Shown here in pieces: positions 4,166-64,000 of a stretch of 64,000 nt of DNA. The translations under genes were made by a program, and so were the position numbers. The DNA comes from a virus, in IMG/VR virus record IMGVR_UViG_3300050821_008607, positions 1 through 64,000 of that record; one strand, written 5' to 3'. The notes beneath the pieces were generated by a model that was not told where the DNA came from, did no database searches, and worked only from the letters and a program-made list of their open reading frames with translations. The first letter of the stretch is position 1, and every line of letters begins with the position of its first letter.

Positions 4166-4422
4166 CGGCCGGCCTCCGGGGTGTCGCGGGGTGCGGCGGC
4201 CATGGACGCTGCGACGATCCGCGCCCCGTATTTCCCGGCCAGAGCCTCGGCAGCGGCCAGCGCGACACGGAGCCGGTCGACCTCGGCGAGCAGCTGCCCG
4301 CGATCGGCGGTGGCGTCGCCCTGCCCGACGGTCCGCCACTCCCCACTGTGCCTGCTGCGTTCGTGGCGCAGACGAATCGCAGCGAGCTGCTCATCGGAGA
4401 GCGGGGCGGCGGGCTCAGGCAT
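4162..4422 (-). CDS. Hypothetical protein
   Basis: LSDEQLAAIR...LLAEVDRLR phage-type motif. Confidence 0.65.
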   Translation of the reverse strand: MPEPAAPLSDEQLAAIRLRHERSRHSGEWRTVGQGDATADRGQLLAEVDRLRVALAAAEALAGKYGARIVAASMAAAPRDTPEAGR

Positions 4423-50900: not shown

Positions 50901-51219
50901 CGCCGTCCTCCGCAGCCGCCGCCTGCGACTGGGCCTCCAGAAGGGCCCGCTCGGCGGTGGCCTGCTGCTCGGCGGTCGACGCCACCCGGGACTGGGCGGC
51001 GCTCAGCTTCGCGTCGGCCAGCTCCATCGCGTTGGCGCCCGACGCGGTCTGCAGTAGCGACGCGTCGATCTTCTCCCCGGCCACCCCGGCGACCTCAGCC
51101 GCCCGGGCCGCAGTGCTCGCGAACTTGTCGAACGACGCGTCGATGCGCTCGGCGGTCCGCGTGGCCCTGTCGACGATCTCGATGACGGCCAGGACGGAGA
51201 AACCCTCAACGCTGCCCAC
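47989..51219 (-). CDS. Tape measure protein (TP901-like core)
   Basis: 1076 aa Ala-rich helical, W-spaced repeats, LGINSPSKVF. Confidence 0.95.
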   Translation of the reverse strand: MGSVEGFSVLAVIEIVDRATRTAERIDASFDKFASTAARAAEVAGVAGEKIDASLLQTASGANAMELADAKLSAAQSRVASTAEQQATAERALLEAQSQAAAAEDGDTAATERLVAASRALTDAQKQSALAAKEAGAAQEHQASVQRATAAASGESAAATDAAAASTTRAGASAERAAAGGSLMSKGMGMAGLAVAAVGVLAIKAAGNFESMTEHLVTDAGESQSGLAKIRAGMLQIAADTGTTTSQMAAGMYHVESAGFHAANGGLDVMRVAAEGAKVGGADLDTVSKALTGTMNAYGMSGDKANVMMNEMITTVGQGDMKMQDLAASLGNVAPLAAAVHIKFSEVGGALATMTAQNMSAQQATQDLAFTIRDLTNPLGPARSEMQALGLSVNGVTQELGSKGLVATLETVTNALAAHTKGGQVFISSLKDSKVAAADLNVMMGQLSPSIQGTAKALQAGTITAKQYNKDLSGLSLPQKALAQQFEALVKKSSSFNDLLKSGSPQAQAMTAALSKLMGGSTGLNTALMITGGRMDTFKNGAKAIEESATKGGKGVDNWAAIQGTFNQKLDVAKASIEAAGISLGTVLLPPVSAIAGAIAKVVVPMATWIAHNQKIVGLLLAVAGAIGAVVLAMKAWEIVQGVMNALALIFAGAEAAILSPAELIVIAIAAVVAGVVYAYFHFKVFRDVVNAVADAVRIAFFAMWHALEAAWRAIAAAAVAVGHALAAAWGAVVGAAEAVWHALEAAWNAVASVTTTVWNAISGFFAKWWPLLLMIFLPAVAAVIGIWNHFHTQIIGTAKAVWGAVAGFFVATWHVIEAGARLAWNAIKVTIIQPIQATWSAIQPIIHAIESFLAAIWRGIQATASAVWNGIKAAIINPITGAWHAVVSVVGNIGSAIGSGLQSAWNAVSNIGSKFLSIGSDIVNGIVSGIEGAASWLFNSVGDLAKNALKSAMSALGINSPSKVFADGVGMAIPEGIAKGVNDHAHLAHAAVRNLSGALPGSAQTALTGSLSLAGAGAGLSYGGGAGGGGGTLVVHNHFEGAHFSSKADMDRLINDIGRSLATKMLPQGGYRSRG

Positions 51220-51428
51220 TGTTCGCCCGCCTCTGCTGTTCTTGTTCCTGGCTGGTGATCAGCTGCAGGTAGACGAGGTAGTCCTCAAGCTCACGGGCAG
51301 GCAGCGCTTCGATGTCAGCCTTCGTCATCCCCAGGCGCTGCCAGAACTGCTGCCTCGTCCAGAACGTCGACAGACTCGGCGGCCCCGGTGCCCCCATCCG
51401 GATCGCCGCCGACGCCTCCAGCAGGAAA
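51206..51428 (-). CDS. Frameshift extension of the tail assembly chaperone
   Basis: +1 frame FLLEASAAIRMG...FWQRLGMT..DIEALP..ELEDYL runs up to the TMP start. Confidence 0.65.
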
Positions 51429-51791
51429 CTGACGCGACTCCGCCTTGGTCCTCGCACCGTTCGACTCGTCGATGAGCTCCCACAGCTGGTCGAAGACCAC
51501 GCCGGGCAGGCGCTTGACGGACTGCAGGTTCAGCGGCCAGATCGGGCCGTCGTCCTCGTCGGCGAGGTTCCAGTCGGCGATGCTGGCCAGGAGCAGCGTC
51601 TGCCGGTACTTGACTGTGTCGGGCTTGACCTCGCGGCCTTTCTCGTTGATGACGACGTTCGCCAGCGCGCGCTCGCCGGCTTCCTGCTGTCCGTGGGAGA
51701 GGTGCTGGCGGATGTCGATCCAGTACTTGCCTTCGGGGTCGCCGACCTCGACGCGGGTGATGCCGGAGTAGGCGGAGAGGAATCCGGGCAT
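51315..51791 (-). CDS. Tail assembly chaperone
   Basis: Between tail tube and TMP; SIADWNLADED..IWPL...V.RLP. Confidence 0.85.
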   Translation of the reverse strand: MPGFLSAYSGITRVEVGDPEGKYWIDIRQHLSHGQQEAGERALANVVINEKGREVKPDTVKYRQTLLLASIADWNLADEDDGPIWPLNLQSVKRLPGVVFDQLWELIDESNGARTKAESRQFPAGGVGGDPDGGTGAAESVDVLDEAAVLAAPGDDEG

Positions 51792-51823
51792 GGGGTCCTG
51801 CTTTCGTGCTGAGGGTGGGCATG

Positions 51824-51853
51824 AAAAAGCCCCGGGCCGTCTGGCTCCAGGGC
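51824..51853 (-). terminator. Hairpin plus T-tract after tail tube gene
   Basis: GCCCTGGAGCC-AGAC-GGCCCGGGGC-TTTTT. Confidence 0.55.
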
Positions 51854-51870
51854 GTGCGGTCGGCGGTGTG

Positions 51871-53094
51871 TCAGTACGGGAGGTACGCCGAGTTGGAGAC
51901 CGTGGCCTGCACGGTGTACTGGCTGGCGCCGGTCAGCGGGCGCGAGGCCTCGTAGGTCAGGGCAGACATGACCACGTCCTCGGCCTTCACCGTCGACCCG
52001 TACTTGGCGACGGCGATCTGCGGCATTGTGATCACGATCGTGCCCGCGCTGGCCGGGTGCGCCAGGGTGAACGTCATTGCGCCCAGGGTCTGGTTGTGGG
52101 CGCGGTTGAAGTCGCCGTACGTGGCGTCGTCGAGCGAGGACCAGACGACGTCGACGGCGCCGGAGACGTGCAGGTTCACCGGGGTCAGGAAGCTCGGCCC
52201 GTGGTTCCCGCTGTAGGTGTAGGTCTCCTTGACGCCGTTCTCGATCACGATCCCGACGTTGCTCACGTCGGCCCGGGCGCCGCTGTAGAAGTTGATCGTG
52301 GCCTCGGAGAACACGAACGGCATCTCGTTGGCGACCGACACCGCGCTGGGGTTGTCGAGGATCGCGACGGACTGGCCCATCAGGTCCGCGGTCATCTCCA
52401 CTGCGGTGTTCCCGACCGGGGCCTTGAGGTCGAACTTGTTGACGCGGCATCCGGCGAACTGCAGCGACTGGTAACCGCCCATGTTCTTCTCTACCGTCAG
52501 CGACGGCAGGAGGTTCTGCTGCTGGATGGTGTGCAGGAACGGCGCGGTCACGATCTTCACGGCGGCGCCGGTGAGGTGGTTGTACGTCAGCGCGACGTCC
52601 ACGGTGAGGGTGTTCGTCGCCACGTTGGTGACCTTGCGGACCTCCGCGGTGGTCGTGGGCCCGGTGCCGTTGACGTCGATCTGCACGATCGAGCCGATGG
52701 CGTAGCCGGCCGCGGACGTCACTACGACGGTCGTGGTGCCCGCAGTCAGGCCGCCGTTGAGGGTGGTCGGCGACGTCGACCCGGTGCCGGTGATCCCGGC
52801 CCCGGCGATGTTGTCCGCGCCGATGCTCGCCACCAGCAGCGCCATGGCATTGGACGGGAAGATCGGACCCGTGAGCGATCCGGCGTACTTGGCCTCGCCC
52901 TGCAGGTTGTAGACCTGCTTGTCGCGCAGGTTCTGCATCAGAACCGGCGAGAACCAGCCCGGGTCTTCCTCGGCGGTGTTGTCCGTCATCGGGAGGTAGG
53001 TGGTGGGCGTCAGGGGCACACCGAAGGTGGCCTCCTTTGCCAGTCCGGTCGCGGACAGGGAACCGGGGCGCTCGATGATGTTCGGGTACGGCAT
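51871..53094 (-). CDS. Major tail (tube) protein
   Basis: GLAKEATFG.P, LPSLTVEK, F.GCRVNKF; position. Confidence 0.85.
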   Translation of the reverse strand: MPYPNIIERPGSLSATGLAKEATFGVPLTPTTYLPMTDNTAEEDPGWFSPVLMQNLRDKQVYNLQGEAKYAGSLTGPIFPSNAMALLVASIGADNIAGAGITGTGSTSPTTLNGGLTAGTTTVVVTSAAGYAIGSIVQIDVNGTGPTTTAEVRKVTNVATNTLTVDVALTYNHLTGAAVKIVTAPFLHTIQQQNLLPSLTVEKNMGGYQSLQFAGCRVNKFDLKAPVGNTAVEMTADLMGQSVAILDNPSAVSVANEMPFVFSEATINFYSGARADVSNVGIVIENGVKETYTYSGNHGPSFLTPVNLHVSGAVDVVWSSLDDATYGDFNRAHNQTLGAMTFTLAHPASAGTIVITMPQIAVAKYGSTVKAEDVVMSALTYEASRPLTGASQYTVQATVSNSAYLPY

Positions 53095-58392: not shown

Positions 58393-60246
58393 CTACTGGC
58401 GGGCGCCGCCCTGGTGGATCGCCTGGAGCGCGGCGATGGCGTCGGCCTGCATGTCCTGGGCGATGCGGTTCTGCTCGGTCGCATTGGCGGCCTTGTACAG
58501 GCGGCCCTTCTGCTCCCGGGCCTTGACCACGTCGACCTGGGCGCCTGCGCCTCGGTCCATGCCGCGCAGGTCGCGCGGCGGGACGGCTCCGTTGGTGAAG
58601 ACACGCGGTTCGGCGGGCTGCTCCTCCAGCGCCCCGATGCGGCCCTTCAGCTCCTTCACGAGGTCCGCCAGCTCCAGGACCGCGTCCGCCTGCTTGGCGA
58701 GGACGGTGTTCTGGCTGGCGCTGTGCTCGGTGAAGGCGCTCTCGACCGCAGCCAGGAGGCTGCTCTTGAACACGTCCGTGAGAGTGGTGTCGGGGATGGA
58801 CTTGGTGACTGCCTCGTCGTCCGTGGGGACGGCGTCGGCGGGGGTGCCGGCCTCGGCCGCAGGGGCGGGGGTGAGGTCGGTGGTCTCGGGGGTAGCCGGG
58901 GCGTCGGTGTCGGCGCCGTCCGTGTCGCTGCCGGTGTCGGAGCTGTCGTCGTCGGCGGATGCCCCGGAGACCATGGTGATCTTCTCGGGGTCGACGATGC
59001 CGACGAGCTTGCCGCTGGCGTTGAACACGGCGACCATCTCCGGCTTGTCGCCGTCGGCCTTCGCCACATCGGTGACGACCTGCCCGGCGACGGGCTTCGG
59101 GTCGGCCTGCTGGGCGCCCATGGCGGGCTCCTGGCCGGAGGCCGCAGTGGCGTCGGCGCTGGGGGTGGGCTCGGCCATGTCGGCCTCCTCGTTCGCGGTC
59201 TTGGCGACCGGGGCCCCGGCCTCCTCGGTGGTGGGGGCCTGCGGGAGGGACGCGAGAACCTTCTGCAGGGAGTCGACGGCGCCGCGGATCGCGGCCTCGT
59301 TGCCCGCGGACAGGACGCGCCCGGCCTTGCGGACGTGGCCGAGGGCCTCGATGGTGTCCAGCGAACTCGGATCCCAGTCGGCGAGGGCCTTGCCGACCAT
59401 CTGCATGTCGTCGCAGCAGTCGGCCTCGGCCTGCTCGGAGACCGCGAACGGCGCGAGGACGCTGATGGCGTAGTCGAGGGCGCAGCACGCGTCCTGGAGG
59501 TCCCAGGCGTTCTCGGCGTCGCCCTCGTCCCCGGCCGCGGCCTCCATCAGTTCACGGTCGGCGAGCATGTCGACGGCGGCCTTGGCCCGCGCCAGGATCG
59601 ACGTCCACTTGCGGGCGGTCGCGGCGTCGACGGCCTCCCAGGCCGGGGAGCCAGGGTCGGTGTCCATGCCGGGGGCGTCGCCGTCGGGCTCGGCAAGGGC
59701 GGTCATCGGGTCCAGGGCGTCGTCGTCCATGCTCGTCTCCTTCGTGACGTCGCCCTTCAGCGAGCCGTCGGCGTTCCAGGTGTCCGGGATCTCGGACTGG
59801 GCGCCGAGGGCCTTGGCTCGTGCGATGACGTGGCGTCGGATCGCGTCATGCTCGGCGCCGCCGCGGCCGACCGCGCGCACTGCGCGGTTGAGGTCTTCAC
59901 GGTCGGCGATCGGGTAGCTCTCGTTGGCCATCGCGGCGCCCGACGCGGCCATGCGCTTGAGGTCGTCGGCGTCGTACTTCGCCTTGAGGACAGCAACCTC
60001 GTGGATCATCTTCGCGATCGCGCCCGGGCTGCCGGTCATCGTCACCGTCTCCTCCGGGATTGGCTCAGGATCAGCCTTGGCGAGCAGCTCGCGGACGAAG
60101 CCGGGGTCGAGGAGTCCGGCGCTGTCGTCGTGCTTCATGAGGAGGAAGCCGGGGACGCCGTTCGCGGCTTTTCCGACGAGGTCGACGCGGGGGATGTTGG
60201 CCTCTGTTGCCTCGGTCCAGTCGTCCTCGTCGAGGAGGTCGGTCAT
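58393..60246 (-). CDS. Scaffolding/capsid maturation protein
   Basis: 617 aa acidic, N-terminal VDLVGKAAN, SYPI...DL..AV.A.GR domain, C-terminal coiled coil. Confidence 0.7.
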   Translation of the reverse strand: MTDLLDEDDWTEATEANIPRVDLVGKAANGVPGFLLMKHDDSAGLLDPGFVRELLAKADPEPIPEETVTMTGSPGAIAKMIHEVAVLKAKYDADDLKRMAASGAAMANESYPIADREDLNRAVRAVGRGGAEHDAIRRHVIARAKALGAQSEIPDTWNADGSLKGDVTKETSMDDDALDPMTALAEPDGDAPGMDTDPGSPAWEAVDAATARKWTSILARAKAAVDMLADRELMEAAAGDEGDAENAWDLQDACCALDYAISVLAPFAVSEQAEADCCDDMQMVGKALADWDPSSLDTIEALGHVRKAGRVLSAGNEAAIRGAVDSLQKVLASLPQAPTTEEAGAPVAKTANEEADMAEPTPSADATAASGQEPAMGAQQADPKPVAGQVVTDVAKADGDKPEMVAVFNASGKLVGIVDPEKITMVSGASADDDSSDTGSDTDGADTDAPATPETTDLTPAPAAEAGTPADAVPTDDEAVTKSIPDTTLTDVFKSSLLAAVESAFTEHSASQNTVLAKQADAVLELADLVKELKGRIGALEEQPAEPRVFTNGAVPPRDLRGMDRGAGAQVDVVKAREQKGRLYKAANATEQNRIAQDMQADAIAALQAIHQGGARQ

Positions 60247-60626
60247 GGGTCACTCCTTCGGTGAGGTCGGCGCCGGGCGACGCCCTGGGGTGAGAAGCCG
60301 GTGACCTTGCCGGACTTGACGAGCCGCCAGGCCGTGTCGTCGCAGATCCCGCCGATGAGCCAGTCCCCGGCTTTGATGACCACACCGTTGCCCTGGTCCC
60401 AGTCCGGGCCGCGATAGATGTACGACTCGGTGACCTGCATGTGGCCGAGGGTGCCCTCGGCGTGAAACAGCCCGACCTGGGCGCCCCCGGGCAGATAGCT
60501 CCAGCAGGCCTTCTCCAGCTCCTCCGCGGTGAAGAAGTCCCGCGCCCCGTCAGCGCCCTTCGCGATGCGCGGATCCTGGCCGGCCTGGTATGCCAAACCG
60601 AGGACGAACCTGGCCTCTTCGGCCAT
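60243..60626 (-). CDS. XkdF-like prohead serine protease
   Basis: D...DFFTAEELEKA, GLFH, ESYI, GDWL.G....W..VK.GK.TGFS..G. Confidence 0.85.
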   Translation of the reverse strand: MAEEARFVLGLAYQAGQDPRIAKGADGARDFFTAEELEKACWSYLPGGAQVGLFHAEGTLGHMQVTESYIYRGPDWDQGNGVVIKAGDWLIGGICDDTAWRLVKSGKVTGFSPQGVARRRPHRRSDP

Positions 60627-60635
60627 GGGCACCCC

Positions 60636-63600
60636 CTATGCGCTCAGGACGGCACACCGACACCGTGGGTGCGCCGGTACGGATCGGTCCCCCGAGGGGA
60701 ATGAGGCGCCGAGCTGGATCGGCCCGGCCCCGGCGTTGGCGATACACCGCGGGCACGTTCGGCTGGACGGGTCCAGGGCCCAGCGGACTTGGGTGACGCC
60801 GAGCTGCTGGTAGCCGAACAGTGCGGCGAGGCCCGACGAGCGGGTGATCTCCGTGATGGCGACGGCCAGTGCCCGGTCGACGCTGCCCAGGGCACTGCGC
60901 AGGGTCCGGCCCAGGGCCAGGGCGGTTGCCCCGGCGATGAGACCCTTGGCCAACTCGCGGGCCAGGTCCCGGCGGCGCGTGTCGGCAATGCCCTGCGCAG
61001 TCTCGGGAACCTGGTCGAGGATCGGCGTCAGGCCCTCGTCGGCGCCCTGGTCGGTGATGGTCCGCTGGGCTCGGGCGGTGTCGCCGGGTGTCCAGCCGTT
61101 GCGCTCTGCCCGGTCGCCGGTGGCTGCGGCGTGGGCGGAGGTGAGGCCGACGAGATAGCCGTCGGTGTACAGCCCCGGCAAGGTGTCGACGAGCGGGGTG
61201 GTGAGGTCCAGGGTCTGGCTTCCGAGCCACGCCTCAGCGGCTGCGGTCAGTTCGCCCTGTTCGGGGCTGCTGGTCTCGTCGAGCTGGTGCTCGGCGAGGA
61301 ACCGGCCGGCGACGTCCTGGGCTGCCGCGGCGGTGAGGACGCCACCGAGTGCCGCGGCGATCACTGCGGCCCAGTGGTTGGCGGCGTCCTCGTCGGTATC
61401 CCAGCCAGGCCACTGGTCGGCAGCCCCCTGGCCAGGGGCTTCACCTTTTCCCGCGCCGACCTTCTCCAGCACCTCGACGCCGAGGGCGGTGAGGACCTGG
61501 TCGAGGTCGGCAAGCAGCTCGGGGCGCACGGCCGGGTTCCCGGCCAGTTGCCCGGGGTGCATCCAGGCGATCGCTTCGATGCAGTCGCCGTCCGGGTCGT
61601 CCGGGTTGGTGACATCCCGGTCGCCGCGAACCGGCACCATGGCCTCGGAGTCGACCGTCCAGACGATGCCCTGGTAGACGCCGTCCGGACTGACCCATGT
61701 GCCGCTCTGGACGCCCGGGGGCGGGATGGACCCGGTCTCCTCCGACCATTCACGCCACGCGCCCATGAGCGGCGACTCGGCCCCTTCGAGGTGACCGCCG
61801 GGGAACTCGAAGGTTCCACCTGCGGGGTCCTCGGGGTCGAGGCAGCGCTGCAGCATCAGGACGCGGCCAGTGTCAGCAGCGCGCACTGCGAGGCCAGCGA
61901 CACTGACCTCACCTGCTGCCTTGCGGACGGCGAGCCGGGCGCTCTGGTTGAGGCGCCGTCCGCGGATCGGGTCGATGGCGCGGAACTCGAAGGGCTCCCA
62001 CTGGCCGGTGCGGCGCCGCTTCTTGGTGAACGACCGGAACGCGGCCAGCTCGCTCTTGGCCAGCTGCTCCCGGTCCTCCTGGTCGTCGTTCTCGTCGTCG
62101 TGCTGCCCCACGAGGTCGTAGGAGGTGATGCCCGTGGCGGTCGTGATCCCCGCCGTGGGGGCGCCGTCCTTCGCAACCTCGGTCGCGGGGGCTTCGGCGA
62201 CGGGCTGCGGGGGTGGGGCGGTGGGCATCGCGTCGAGGCCGTAGATCTGCTCCGCGAGCGGGACGCCCTTCGCCGGCGGTTCCGGGGTGATGCCTTCCGC
62301 GCCGGTGAACACCGAATGTGGCAGCGGCGCGCCGGGTTCGGGGGCGCCGGTCTGGGTGTCGATCTCTCCCGCCACCGAGTACAGCGACGACAGTGGCACT
62401 GGGCCGGCGTGGGAGGTGAAGATGAATCGGGGCACCGGCTGGCCGTTCGGCTCCTGGAGGCCGTAGCGGCTCTCCCGGATCTCGGACGCGCCGACGACAC
62501 CGAGTTCGATGTAGATCTTGTCTGCCTGGGCCTGCTGCAGCCGGTCGGCCTGCTCCTCGCCGAGGTCGAAGGCGAAGTCGAGCGGCAGGCCGAGATCGTC
62601 CTGGAGGAACGCGGACAGGATCGTCTGGACGTGGCGCAGCAGCGGCAGGTCGCCGACGCGGTGCTGGACGTCGGCCTGCGACTCACCGCTGCTCTTGTTG
62701 ACGGACTCGGTGAATCCGAGGTCGGCCGGTACGACGTGGAATGCCGCCGCGGTCTTCCGCATCAGGAACAGGCTGAAATGATCCTGGAAGTCTTTCTCGT
62801 TGGACCATTCGATCTTGCCGCCGCCGGGCATCCACTTGATCTGGGCCTTGGCGGCCTGGTCGCCCAGCATCCAGGCGTCCCAGTAGGTCTGGAATGCCTC
62901 GATCTGGTCGGGGGTCCAGGTCTCGGGTGCGGACGCGAACGCGGAGGGGATGTTGCCCTCGGTGAAGCGCTGCAGGAAGTACGCCTGGAACCTGAGGTCG
63001 GTGTTGGCGTTGAGGAGGATCGTCTCCAGCGGCGCCAGCCCGTAGGGGCTGTTGGCGCGCTTGCGGAACGGCTGGTAGATCAGGTCGTCGCGGGTCAGCT
63101 GGTCCCACGGCAGGCCGTTGACGTACTGCACGAACGCCGGGGCCGGCGTCTCGGGGCTGTTGCCCCAGTAGTCGAGCAGTGGCGCGATCATGGTGCCGTC
63201 TACGACGCGCAGGCCGATGGCGTCACCGCGGCGGTTCCGGAGCCGGTACAGGGTTCCGGCGTCGTAGGCGAGGGTGTCGTACAGGAACGAGCCGAGCCAG
63301 GCGCTGAAGGACTGCTGGCCGTCGGGCTTGGCGAGGGCTTTCATGCCGATCTGGATGGCGTCGGCGAGGTCGCCGCCGTTCCCGTCCTTGGCGACCAGGG
63401 ACCAGTCGAGGGAGCGGATCGAGTCGATGCGGTGCCAGATGCACATCTGGGCGACGTCGTAGGACTCGATCAGGCCGCGCAGGGTGTCGAAGCTGACGCG
63501 CTCGTAGGTCCGCGGCCTGGTGGCCACGTTGTAGTTGGTGACGTAGTTCTCGGTGCGCGGGGTGCGCGAGTACCCGTCGTAGGGCCCGAGTGGTGTGCCG

Positions 63601-63707
63601 GGGCTGAACGGCGACGCCGGGGTCATCTGGGATGCTGCCTGGCCTGCCGCGATGGCTGCGGGCACGTTCGTTCCGTAGGTCTTGACCAGGCGGCGGGGGT
63701 CGGGCAC
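60636..63707 (-). CDS. Portal protein fused to NUDIX and MuF (gp7-like) domains
   Basis: Portal motifs (VDG..I.P, YGL.PLE, F.EGNIP, A.F.V.P.DLG); Nudix box GHLEGAESPLMGAWREWSEETG; MuF TE..R...W....RTCPRC...PAHPRCRC. Confidence 0.88.
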   Translation of the reverse strand: MPDPRRLVKTYGTNVPAAIAAGQAASQMTPASPFSPGTPLGPYDGYSRTPRTENYVTNYNVATRPRTYERVSFDTLRGLIESYDVAQMCIWHRIDSIRSLDWSLVAKDGNGGDLADAIQIGMKALAKPDGQQSFSAWLGSFLYDTLAYDAGTLYRLRNRRGDAIGLRVVDGTMIAPLLDYWGNSPETPAPAFVQYVNGLPWDQLTRDDLIYQPFRKRANSPYGLAPLETILLNANTDLRFQAYFLQRFTEGNIPSAFASAPETWTPDQIEAFQTYWDAWMLGDQAAKAQIKWMPGGGKIEWSNEKDFQDHFSLFLMRKTAAAFHVVPADLGFTESVNKSSGESQADVQHRVGDLPLLRHVQTILSAFLQDDLGLPLDFAFDLGEEQADRLQQAQADKIYIELGVVGASEIRESRYGLQEPNGQPVPRFIFTSHAGPVPLSSLYSVAGEIDTQTGAPEPGAPLPHSVFTGAEGITPEPPAKGVPLAEQIYGLDAMPTAPPPQPVAEAPATEVAKDGAPTAGITTATGITSYDLVGQHDDENDDQEDREQLAKSELAAFRSFTKKRRRTGQWEPFEFRAIDPIRGRRLNQSARLAVRKAAGEVSVAGLAVRAADTGRVLMLQRCLDPEDPAGGTFEFPGGHLEGAESPLMGAWREWSEETGSIPPPGVQSGTWVSPDGVYQGIVWTVDSEAMVPVRGDRDVTNPDDPDGDCIEAIAWMHPGQLAGNPAVRPELLADLDQVLTALGVEVLEKVGAGKGEAPGQGAADQWPGWDTDEDAANHWAAVIAAALGGVLTAAAAQDVAGRFLAEHQLDETSSPEQGELTAAAEAWLGSQTLDLTTPLVDTLPGLYTDGYLVGLTSAHAAATGDRAERNGWTPGDTARAQRTITDQGADEGLTPILDQVPETAQGIADTRRRDLARELAKGLIAGATALALGRTLRSALGSVDRALAVAITEITRSSGLAALFGYQQLGVTQVRWALDPSSRTCPRCIANAGAGPIQLGASFPSGDRSVPAHPRCRCAVLSA

Positions 63708-63721
63708 CGGGACCCCCTTGT

Positions 63722-64000
63722 TCAGCGTTGGGCGCGGTAGGCGGCGTTGCGGGCCCGCTGGCGGGCGGCGGCCGGATCCTCTTGCTGCTCGGGGGCAGGC
63801 GGCGGCGCGGCAGTCGGTGCCAGGTCGGGAAGTTCCGCGTCAGCTCCGCCTTGCGTCGCGGCCTCGGCCTGACGGCGCATGTAGCTGATCCAGCTCTGGG
63901 CGCTGAAGTCGTCGGTCAGCTCGGTCACCGCCCACACGAGAGCGTCGAGCCGGTCGGGGCTGGTGCCGTCCTGTGGCGTCCACGTCGTCATCTGGTCTTC
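63722..64000 (-). CDS. Terminase large subunit, C-terminal end (partial)
   Basis: EDQMTTW...SPDRLDALVWA.TEL; upstream of portal; runs off the window. Confidence 0.85.
   Translation of the reverse strand, partial: EDQMTTWTPQDGTSPDRLDALVWAVTELTDDFSAQSWISYMRRQAEAATQGGADAELPDLAPTAAPPPAPEQQEDPAAARQRARNAAYRAQR

Follow-up and report, generated by a model that had tools for sequence, protein, structure and literature searches.

The DNA analyzed here (the window) is the first 64 kb of the IMG/VR record IMGVR_UViG_3300050821_008607, a 98,183-bp sequence with direct terminal repeats that is rated complete and represents a 98-kb soil actinophage. The GC content of the window is 69.7%. On its minus strand, the end of the large terminase gene is followed by an open reading frame (ORF) of 1023 aa, then by a gene resembling those for head maturation proteases and, at some distance, by the tape measure gene. 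The 1023-aa protein joins a portal domain, a NUDIX domain and a MuF-like module in one chain. At the junction between NUDIX and MuF, an initial annotation of this DNA had placed a candidate programmed −1 frameshift that would switch the portal between forms with and without MuF. That reading is supported by a conserved slippery spelling, by a close stop in the −1 frame and by relatives in which MuF lies out of frame with the portal. We consider it likely that the NUDIX/MuF linker holds a programmed −1 frameshift cassette of the dnaX type, by which one gene would yield portal protein both with and without MuF. The gene and its cassette, which includes a Shine-Dalgarno (SD)-like tract, are as follows.

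60636–63707, minus strand: portal-NUDIX-MuF fusion gene (1023 aa from a GTG start; coordinates include the stop codon; zero-frame product), from the ORF list, the translation and Pfam domains
62472–63452, minus strand: portal domain (residues 86–412), PF04860 Phage_portal, E = 5.4e-16, 59.1 bits vs. a cut-off of 39.1
61524–61889, minus strand: NUDIX domain (residues 607–728), PF00293, E = 1e-12, 48.6 bits vs. a cut-off of 21.1
61460–61467, minus strand: SD-like tract GGAGAAGG, 7 nt 5′ of the heptamer and a candidate for a 5′ stimulator; −10.9 kcal/mol when paired with the 16S 3′ end
61446–61452, minus strand: slippery heptamer G_GGA_AAA (X_XXY_YYZ in the zero frame; codons Gly753 and Lys754), phase checked, conserved in 49/49 distinct junctions
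61441–61443, minus strand: UGA, the stop codon of the −1 frame, reached one codon (AGG) past the slip codons; would close the 755-aa product; the frame reads GGG AAA AGG TGA
61422–61440, minus strand: hairpin AGCCCCU-GGCCA-GGGGGCU, 7 bp, 5 nt 3′ of the heptamer, candidate 3′ stimulator; −16.4 kcal/mol
60639–61442, minus strand: MuF-like module (residues 756–1023), in the unshifted product only; PHROG 115, 4728 and 2662, Pfam PF04233

The slip cassette in the window

At the NUDIX/MuF junction the zero frame reads GCG GGA AAA GGT GAA on the minus strand. The heptamer, its phase, the immediate −1 stop and the GC hairpin about 5 nt downstream all proved to be as the initial annotation had described them, and its remark that the two slip codons are disfavored here also holds: GC at third codon positions (GC3) is 0.90 in this gene, GGA accounts for 8 of its 97 Gly codons and AAA for 3 of its 21 Lys codons. 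The predicted products are a 1023-aa portal-NUDIX-MuF protein (109.8 kDa) and a 755-aa portal-NUDIX protein (82.3 kDa) ending in ...VGAGKR, which are the sizes that had been anticipated.

GGGAAAA occurs once on the two strands of the 64-kb window (128 kb in all), CCCAAAA does not occur on either strand, and the chance expectation for the 12-mer is 0.12 occurrences. For pairing with 16S rRNA, the SD-like tract lies at the 2nd percentile of in-gene controls. No tRNA genes were found in the window, so there is no phage-borne tRNA-Lys(UUU) or tRNA-Gly(UCC) to consider. A separate candidate, AAAGGTGA as an internal start or SD sequence, was dropped: no in-frame start follows it, and relatives with GGC in place of GGT retain the heptamer. 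Taken alone, the elements in the window are only mildly unusual, and the evidential weight comes from comparison with relatives.

Conservation of the slippery heptamer

Viral contigs, genomes and phage records yielded ~85 related loci, whose junctions we read by codon. Junctions with Pro-Lys or Gly-Lys at the site number 49 distinct ones, from relatives with 45–82% protein identity that include the phages Sonali and Mufasa8. The slip codons in this set are CCA AAA in 44 junctions and GGA AAA in 5, and Z is always A. The base that precedes them matches X in all 49, being C before each of the 44 CCA codons and G before each of the 5 GGA codons. The initial annotation had proposed testing conservation of the heptamer at the nucleotide level among homologs; the slippery spelling is present at every one of these junctions, and synonymous non-slippery codons at none.

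This uniformity does not follow the codon usage of the genes concerned, in which CCA makes up 6.3% of Pro codons, AAA 10.3% of Lys codons and GGA 7.7% of Gly codons, with C at 53% of third positions. From this background, the probability of the slippery spelling arising by chance is ~0.0035 per independent lineage. The junctions also carry internal controls. The conserved Pro of WPGW, ~12 codons downstream, is spelled CCC in 18 cases, CCG in 3, CCT in 3 and CCA in 1, and a conserved Lys a few codons upstream is AAG in 37 cases and AAA in 1. Rare codons are invariant at the slip site while nearby Pro and Lys residues take common ones, which argues for a constraint on the nucleotides and not on the protein. 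In Sonali and Mufasa8 (~45% identity), CCCAAAA occurs once in 8 kb of sequence, and in each phage that single copy is located at the junction.

Several much more distant portal-MuF fusions (L081:3284, L082:3464, L084:3284 and L089:907) carry C_CCA_AAA (...PKA/PKV...) in frame a short way ahead of the MuF core. Their −1 tails run for 23–43 codons, and this may be either the same signal or chance in lower-GC genomes.

Two subclades carry inserts near the site. In L013, L014, L018–L025, L045, L049 and L050, a Cys/His-rich stretch, CPCG.P..YD..DGWQH.DGS.GH.DGESVSDKM, lies between NUDIX and the slip site (~150 nt past the NUDIX domain); in L030, L032, L052 and L053 the insert is CPCCSG.GEH..G.EC.HCDASG. 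These inserts look like small zinc-binding modules.

A close stop in the −1 frame

Among 42 distinct in-frame relatives, 36 have a −1 stop within 1–5 codons of the slip codons: after 1 codon in 17 of the 42, after 4 in 15 and after 5 in 3. Ordinary positions in the same genes give a very different distribution, with a median of 54 codons to the next −1 stop and a stop at ≤4 codons in only 8.7% of cases. The stop is nearly always UGA, and it is formed by rare T-ending codons (GGT GA, CCT GA, GCT GA or TCT GA).

Candidate stimulatory elements

SD-like pairing upstream of the heptamer is enriched among relatives, with a median percentile of 0.10 against in-gene controls over 48 distinct junctions, a value uncorrected for shared ancestry. 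The tract reads AAGGCGG or GGTGATG in other relatives.

On the downstream side, about half of the junctions have a perfect GC-rich stem of 6–12 bp that begins 5–8 nt past the heptamer (Kolmogorov-Smirnov p = 6e-9 vs. in-gene controls, again uncorrected for shared ancestry). Its sequence differs by clade: GCCCC/GGGGC in the clade of the window, CCCUCC/GGAGGG in the Arthrobacter phages, CCCGCC/GGCGGG in L034, and a stem of 12 bp in L046. The other junctions show at most a weak stem of 5 bp. When RNAalifold was run on a MAFFT alignment of 13 junctions, no stem was returned, because loops of unequal length were misaligned. The stem was then assessed by a gap-free alignment of seven sequences and by a hairpin scan of each sequence. 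In the gap-free alignment of the homologous stem, 95.9% of cells are paired and two pairs are changed on both sides; 11 of 500 shuffles do equally well, and shared ancestry is not corrected for. One compensatory change, in L005, converts GCCCCC/GGGGGC to GCCUCC/GGAGGC at the cost of a Pro-to-Ser and a Gly-to-Glu substitution. The covariation is modest, and as evidence for a stimulator the downstream stem is supportive, not proven.

Relatives with MuF in the −1 frame

In a number of lineages (L026/L051/L064, L034/L065, L066/L067, L068–L070, L079 with G_GGA_AAA, and L015), the zero frame encoding portal-NUDIX stops 1–23 codons past the heptamer. MuF homology (S/T-WRD...DLxLTDHYAP) continues directly past the heptamer in the −1 frame, in an ORF of 262–525 codons. 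This frame is closed 2–3 codons 5′ of the heptamer in most of these lineages, and in L026 and L034, the two loci whose −1 frame was read by codon, no start codon was found ahead of the conserved MuF motif. Slipping is therefore the only route from portal to MuF in the out-of-frame relatives, which provide independent evidence that the site serves for slipping.

Identical out-of-frame junctions were assembled from two to three different metagenomes, and two of the −1 products share only 50% identity over 500 residues. This divergence, together with the independent assemblies, indicates that the out-of-frame arrangement is real and old and not an assembly error. L015, a single contig, is the only out-of-frame case that could be such an error. 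In a tree of the portal domain, the out-of-frame lineages fall at least at four separate places among in-frame relatives, and these scattered positions indicate that the heptamer was retained while the frame downstream of it flipped repeatedly.

The −1 product is ~490–525 aa long in L026 (4265–5785, P0002), L034 (4187–5662, P0003), L066 and L068, and consists of the MuF core and a C-terminal domain of ~190 aa. The latter matches the C-terminal part of the "long" MuF-like minor capsid proteins of many mycobacteriophages (e.g. TM4 gp6) and also PHROG 1752/12049. In-frame genes have the short MuF only, ~265 aa; L015 and L079 are out of frame yet short. When the −1 product and a NUDIX-less fusion were searched by tblastn against 50,697 phage records, no cultured phage with the out-of-frame arrangement or with annotated slippage was found; Sonali and Mufasa8 were the only members of the portal family among these records.

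These relatives also raise the explanation that competes best with a programmed frameshift in the in-frame genes, namely that the signal functions only where MuF lies in the −1 frame and is a relic elsewhere, so that slips in an in-frame gene would yield a useless truncation and the close stop would limit the waste. Out-of-frame relatives do exist and need the site, and some in-frame relatives (L049, L052, L053 and L055) manage without a heptamer. However, the in-frame genes far outnumber the others and extend across the deepest splits of the tree. Nearby synonymous sites in them vary freely and the heptamer never does, whereas a relic consisting of two rare codons would erode, and the candidate stimulators have been retained in in-frame genes too. 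We therefore regard a relic as unlikely.

Other explanations and contrary observations

The rare CCA/GGA-AAA pair could instead act as a translational pause at a domain boundary, letting portal-NUDIX fold before MuF is made, with no productive frameshift. Both codons are indeed rare in these GC3-rich genes, and the site does lie in an inter-domain linker. A pause, however, would need neither a matching preceding base, seen in 49/49 junctions, nor a −1 stop within a few codons, and it cannot account for relatives in which only a −1 slip makes MuF readable. This makes it a very improbable explanation. We give slightly less credence still to RNA polymerase slippage on the A run as the source of the second frame. 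The site has a run of four A (five in L047), but the known bacterial cases need about nine A or T, according to the recoding review PMC5009743, and polymerase slippage would not require a full X_XXY_YYZ in fixed phase with translational stimulators on its flanks. A chance coincidence of heptamer, nearby off-frame stop and GC hairpin in a GC-rich gene might be entertained for the mildly unusual elements of the window, but at ~0.0035 per independent lineage the 49/49 junctions refute it, and we set it aside.

A programmed frameshift remains the preferred reading, and several observations weigh against it. The hairpin is not significant in the window alone (z = −1.72; 13 of 200 shuffles fold as well). 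The initial annotation had called for conservation of both the −1 stop and the stem; the stop bears this out, and the stem does so in part, since it recurs 5–8 nt downstream with compensatory changes but is weak or absent, by a simple criterion, in about a third of relatives. A Streptomyces prophage clade (L049/L052/L053/L055) has an in-frame fusion without any heptamer, the PKG linker being replaced by an acidic stretch. L016 has no MuF at the locus: its portal-NUDIX ORF ends right past NUDIX (4206–4263) and runs into a protease-like gene. L011 (4197–4419) has lost most of MuF by an internal deletion that joins the linker to the last ~50 MuF residues. Farther away, the portal-MuF fusion of Brevundimonas phage Strzyga (30% identity) lacks the in-frame heptamer, so the signal does not reach Strzyga. 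From the heptamer-less clade, L016, L011 and the Brevundimonas fusion it follows that the short form is not universally required. Finally, if slipping efficiency were far from one half, in-frame and out-of-frame relatives would have opposite ratios of the two forms, which the stoichiometry idea developed below would leave unexplained.

The heptamer-less Streptomyces prophage clade can also be viewed as a natural "no frameshift" control group.

Proposed mechanism

In the mechanism that we propose for the window gene, ribosomes that have passed portal-NUDIX would reach the site with tRNA-Gly on GGA and tRNA-Lys on AAA, and the SD-like tract upstream and the hairpin downstream would hold them at the heptamer. 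A fraction would slip back by one base onto GGG AAA, add Arg at AGG and terminate at UGA, giving the 755-aa portal-NUDIX protein. The remaining ribosomes would read on to make the 1023-aa portal-NUDIX-MuF protein. Both products retain the complete portal domain, which leads us to expect mixed rings: the two forms would co-assemble into a single dodecameric ring, with MuF on only some of its subunits. We infer slipping in this phage, co-assembly of the two forms and an effect on MuF copy number from the features described above.

Several switches from one topology to the other among relatives suggest a slipping efficiency that is not far from one half and perhaps near it. A rationale for having some subunits without MuF comes from phage SPP1, whose MuF protein gp7 attaches to the portal and is taken into the capsid in few copies (PMC6316719).

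More tentatively, and with less confidence than we place in the cassette itself, the arrangement could be a family-wide "stoichiometry dial" for capsid-internal cargo. About half of the ribosomes would slip, and the mixed dodecamer would carry a set number of MuF domains. At a rate near one half, single-base insertions or deletions would have switched lineages repeatedly and harmlessly from "slip to truncate" to "slip to extend" or back. In that case tailed phages would have, in portal-MuF recoding, another widespread and conserved frameshift beside that of the tail chaperones.

Comparison with known systems

The closest parallel is dnaX of E. coli. There ~50% of ribosomes move into the −1 frame and meet a stop one codon later, and other bacteria reverse the roles of the two frames by the position of the stop (PMC5009743). 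As with tau and gamma, the heptamer of the window lies within a long ORF at a domain boundary and the shifted product is the shorter one, ending one codon past the slip. Of the three parts of the dnaX signal, the SD-like tract and the heptamer are likewise shared, and the stem-loop has a candidate counterpart in the hairpin. The arrangement in dnaX of other species, with a zero-frame stop right past the site (PMC5009743), is matched by L066–L070. The initial annotation had rightly pointed out that, compared with tail chaperones, the logic is turned around, because shifting truncates. E. coli dnaX follows this inverted logic, and the portal family contains both kinds. The differences are that E. 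coli dnaX encodes a clamp-loader subunit and uses A_AAA_AAG, whereas the gene described here is a portal-MuF fusion with X_XXA_AAA, Z always A, in phages of high-GC actinobacterial hosts.

Among phage genes, the best-known case is the −1 frameshift of the tail assembly chaperones G/GT, found in lambda and in the majority of long-tailed phages (Xu, Hendrix and Duda 2004, cited by PMC7302621 and PMC5009743). It too is a conserved −1 slip in a structural module and determines how much is made of a short protein relative to a long one with the same N-terminal part, and its "slip to extend" logic is that of the out-of-frame L026, L034, L066, L068 and L079. G/GT is nevertheless a different gene pair whose products are absent from virions, and the slip in the window truncates. 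The window site is not of the G/GT type, since it lies inside the portal gene and 10 kb away from the tape measure gene. From the start of the tape measure gene up to 53000 (51220–53000), the minus strand was found to contain no X_XXY_YYZ with Y = A or T, so the chaperone frameshift of this phage, if it has one, uses another type of site. GGGTTTC is present at 51199–51205 (minus strand), 14 nt inside the predicted start of the tape measure ORF.

Recoding in the head module has parallels as well. Phage T7 reportedly makes 10A and 10B by a −1 frameshift in its capsid gene. The major head protein of Lactobacillus phage A2 is also subject to −1 frameshifting (listed among the references of PMC10885494). 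Both resemble the proposed portal case in that head-module recoding gives two co-assembling versions of one structural protein, and both differ from it in that the major capsid protein is extended and neither portal nor MuF is involved.

Fusions of portal and MuF genes are described for Microbacterium phage clusters EA3, EA5, EA8 and EB (PMC7302621), and gene 3 of Sonali is annotated as "portal and MuF-like fusion protein". Like the window gene, these place a portal and a MuF-like minor head protein in one ORF, and those of Sonali and Mufasa8 are true homologs that possess both NUDIX and the heptamer. Unlike it, they are described (PMC7302621) or annotated (the Sonali and Mufasa8 records) as a plain single coding sequence (CDS), with recoding unmentioned. 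The gp6/gp7 pair of SPP1 is similar in that MuF enters the capsid by way of the portal and in few copies, but there the ratio is set by the binding of two separate gene products and not by recoding of a fusion.

No portal or portal-MuF frameshift was found in the literature searched, which included PMC7302621, PMC7911831, PMC5506516, PMC10885494 and a 2025 bioRxiv frameshift survey, and the word "portal" is absent from the available part of the recoding review PMC5009743. Portal-MuF fusions are thus already known, and recoding within the portal gene is found in none of these accounts. Tailed phages are known for one near-universal programmed frameshift, that of the tail chaperone genes, and a conserved one in the portal gene would, if true, be the second. 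It would change the annotation of genes now called either one plain CDS or two genes, one of them startless, and would account for a MuF-fused portal not carrying twelve copies of a protein that is normally present in few. It would also provide a natural example, within a single family, of one slip site that both truncates and extends.

Domain assignments, neighboring genes and further observations

The genes around the portal fusion are as follows.

63722–64000, minus strand: large terminase gene, end part; PHROG 38, E = 3.5e-5
60243–60632, minus strand: head maturation protease-like gene, the next gene downstream; PHROG 3017, E = 2.8e-15
51219–47989, minus strand: tape measure gene, context of the window

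The portal assignment rests on two counts: PF04860 scores above its curated threshold, and the gene comes after the large terminase. The conserved part of the MuF-like module begins at WPGW, and the Pfam Phage_Mu_F core corresponds to residues 915–1020. In the window gene this family (PF04233) scores 27.9 bits, just below its cut-off of 29.6, while the homologs in Sonali, P0002 and P0003 reach 38–42 bits. The module also matches PHROG 115 (E = 1e-12) and PHROG 4728 (E = 3e-11), both minor head protein/head morphogenesis families, and PHROG 2662 (positions 520–705).

The closest relatives of the 1023-aa protein are found in prophages of Streptacidiphilus, Kitasatospora and Streptomyces and in many uncultured viruses. 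The only cultured relatives are the Arthrobacter phages Sonali and Mufasa8, in which the portal-NUDIX-MuF architecture is kept at ~45% identity.

The Nudix box of the portal-embedded NUDIX domain (61719–61787, minus strand; residues 641–663) is essentially intact, with the pattern G x5 E x7 RE W x EE x G. The translation reads G-HLEGA-E-SPLMGAW-RE-W-S-EE-T-G-S against the consensus GX5EX7REUXEEXGU, and the sole deviation is the last hydrophobic position. With the box preserved to this extent, the portal-borne NUDIX may be catalytically active.

A further variant occurs in L031 (4548–6579), where heptamer, −1 stop and hairpin are followed by a variant MuF in which ~300 intein-like residues interrupt the core motif (...GGPHC|FPAAV...GIIVSN|CRCGITY). 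In its close relative L027 the motif GGPRCRCGITY is unbroken, and the heptamer is absent.

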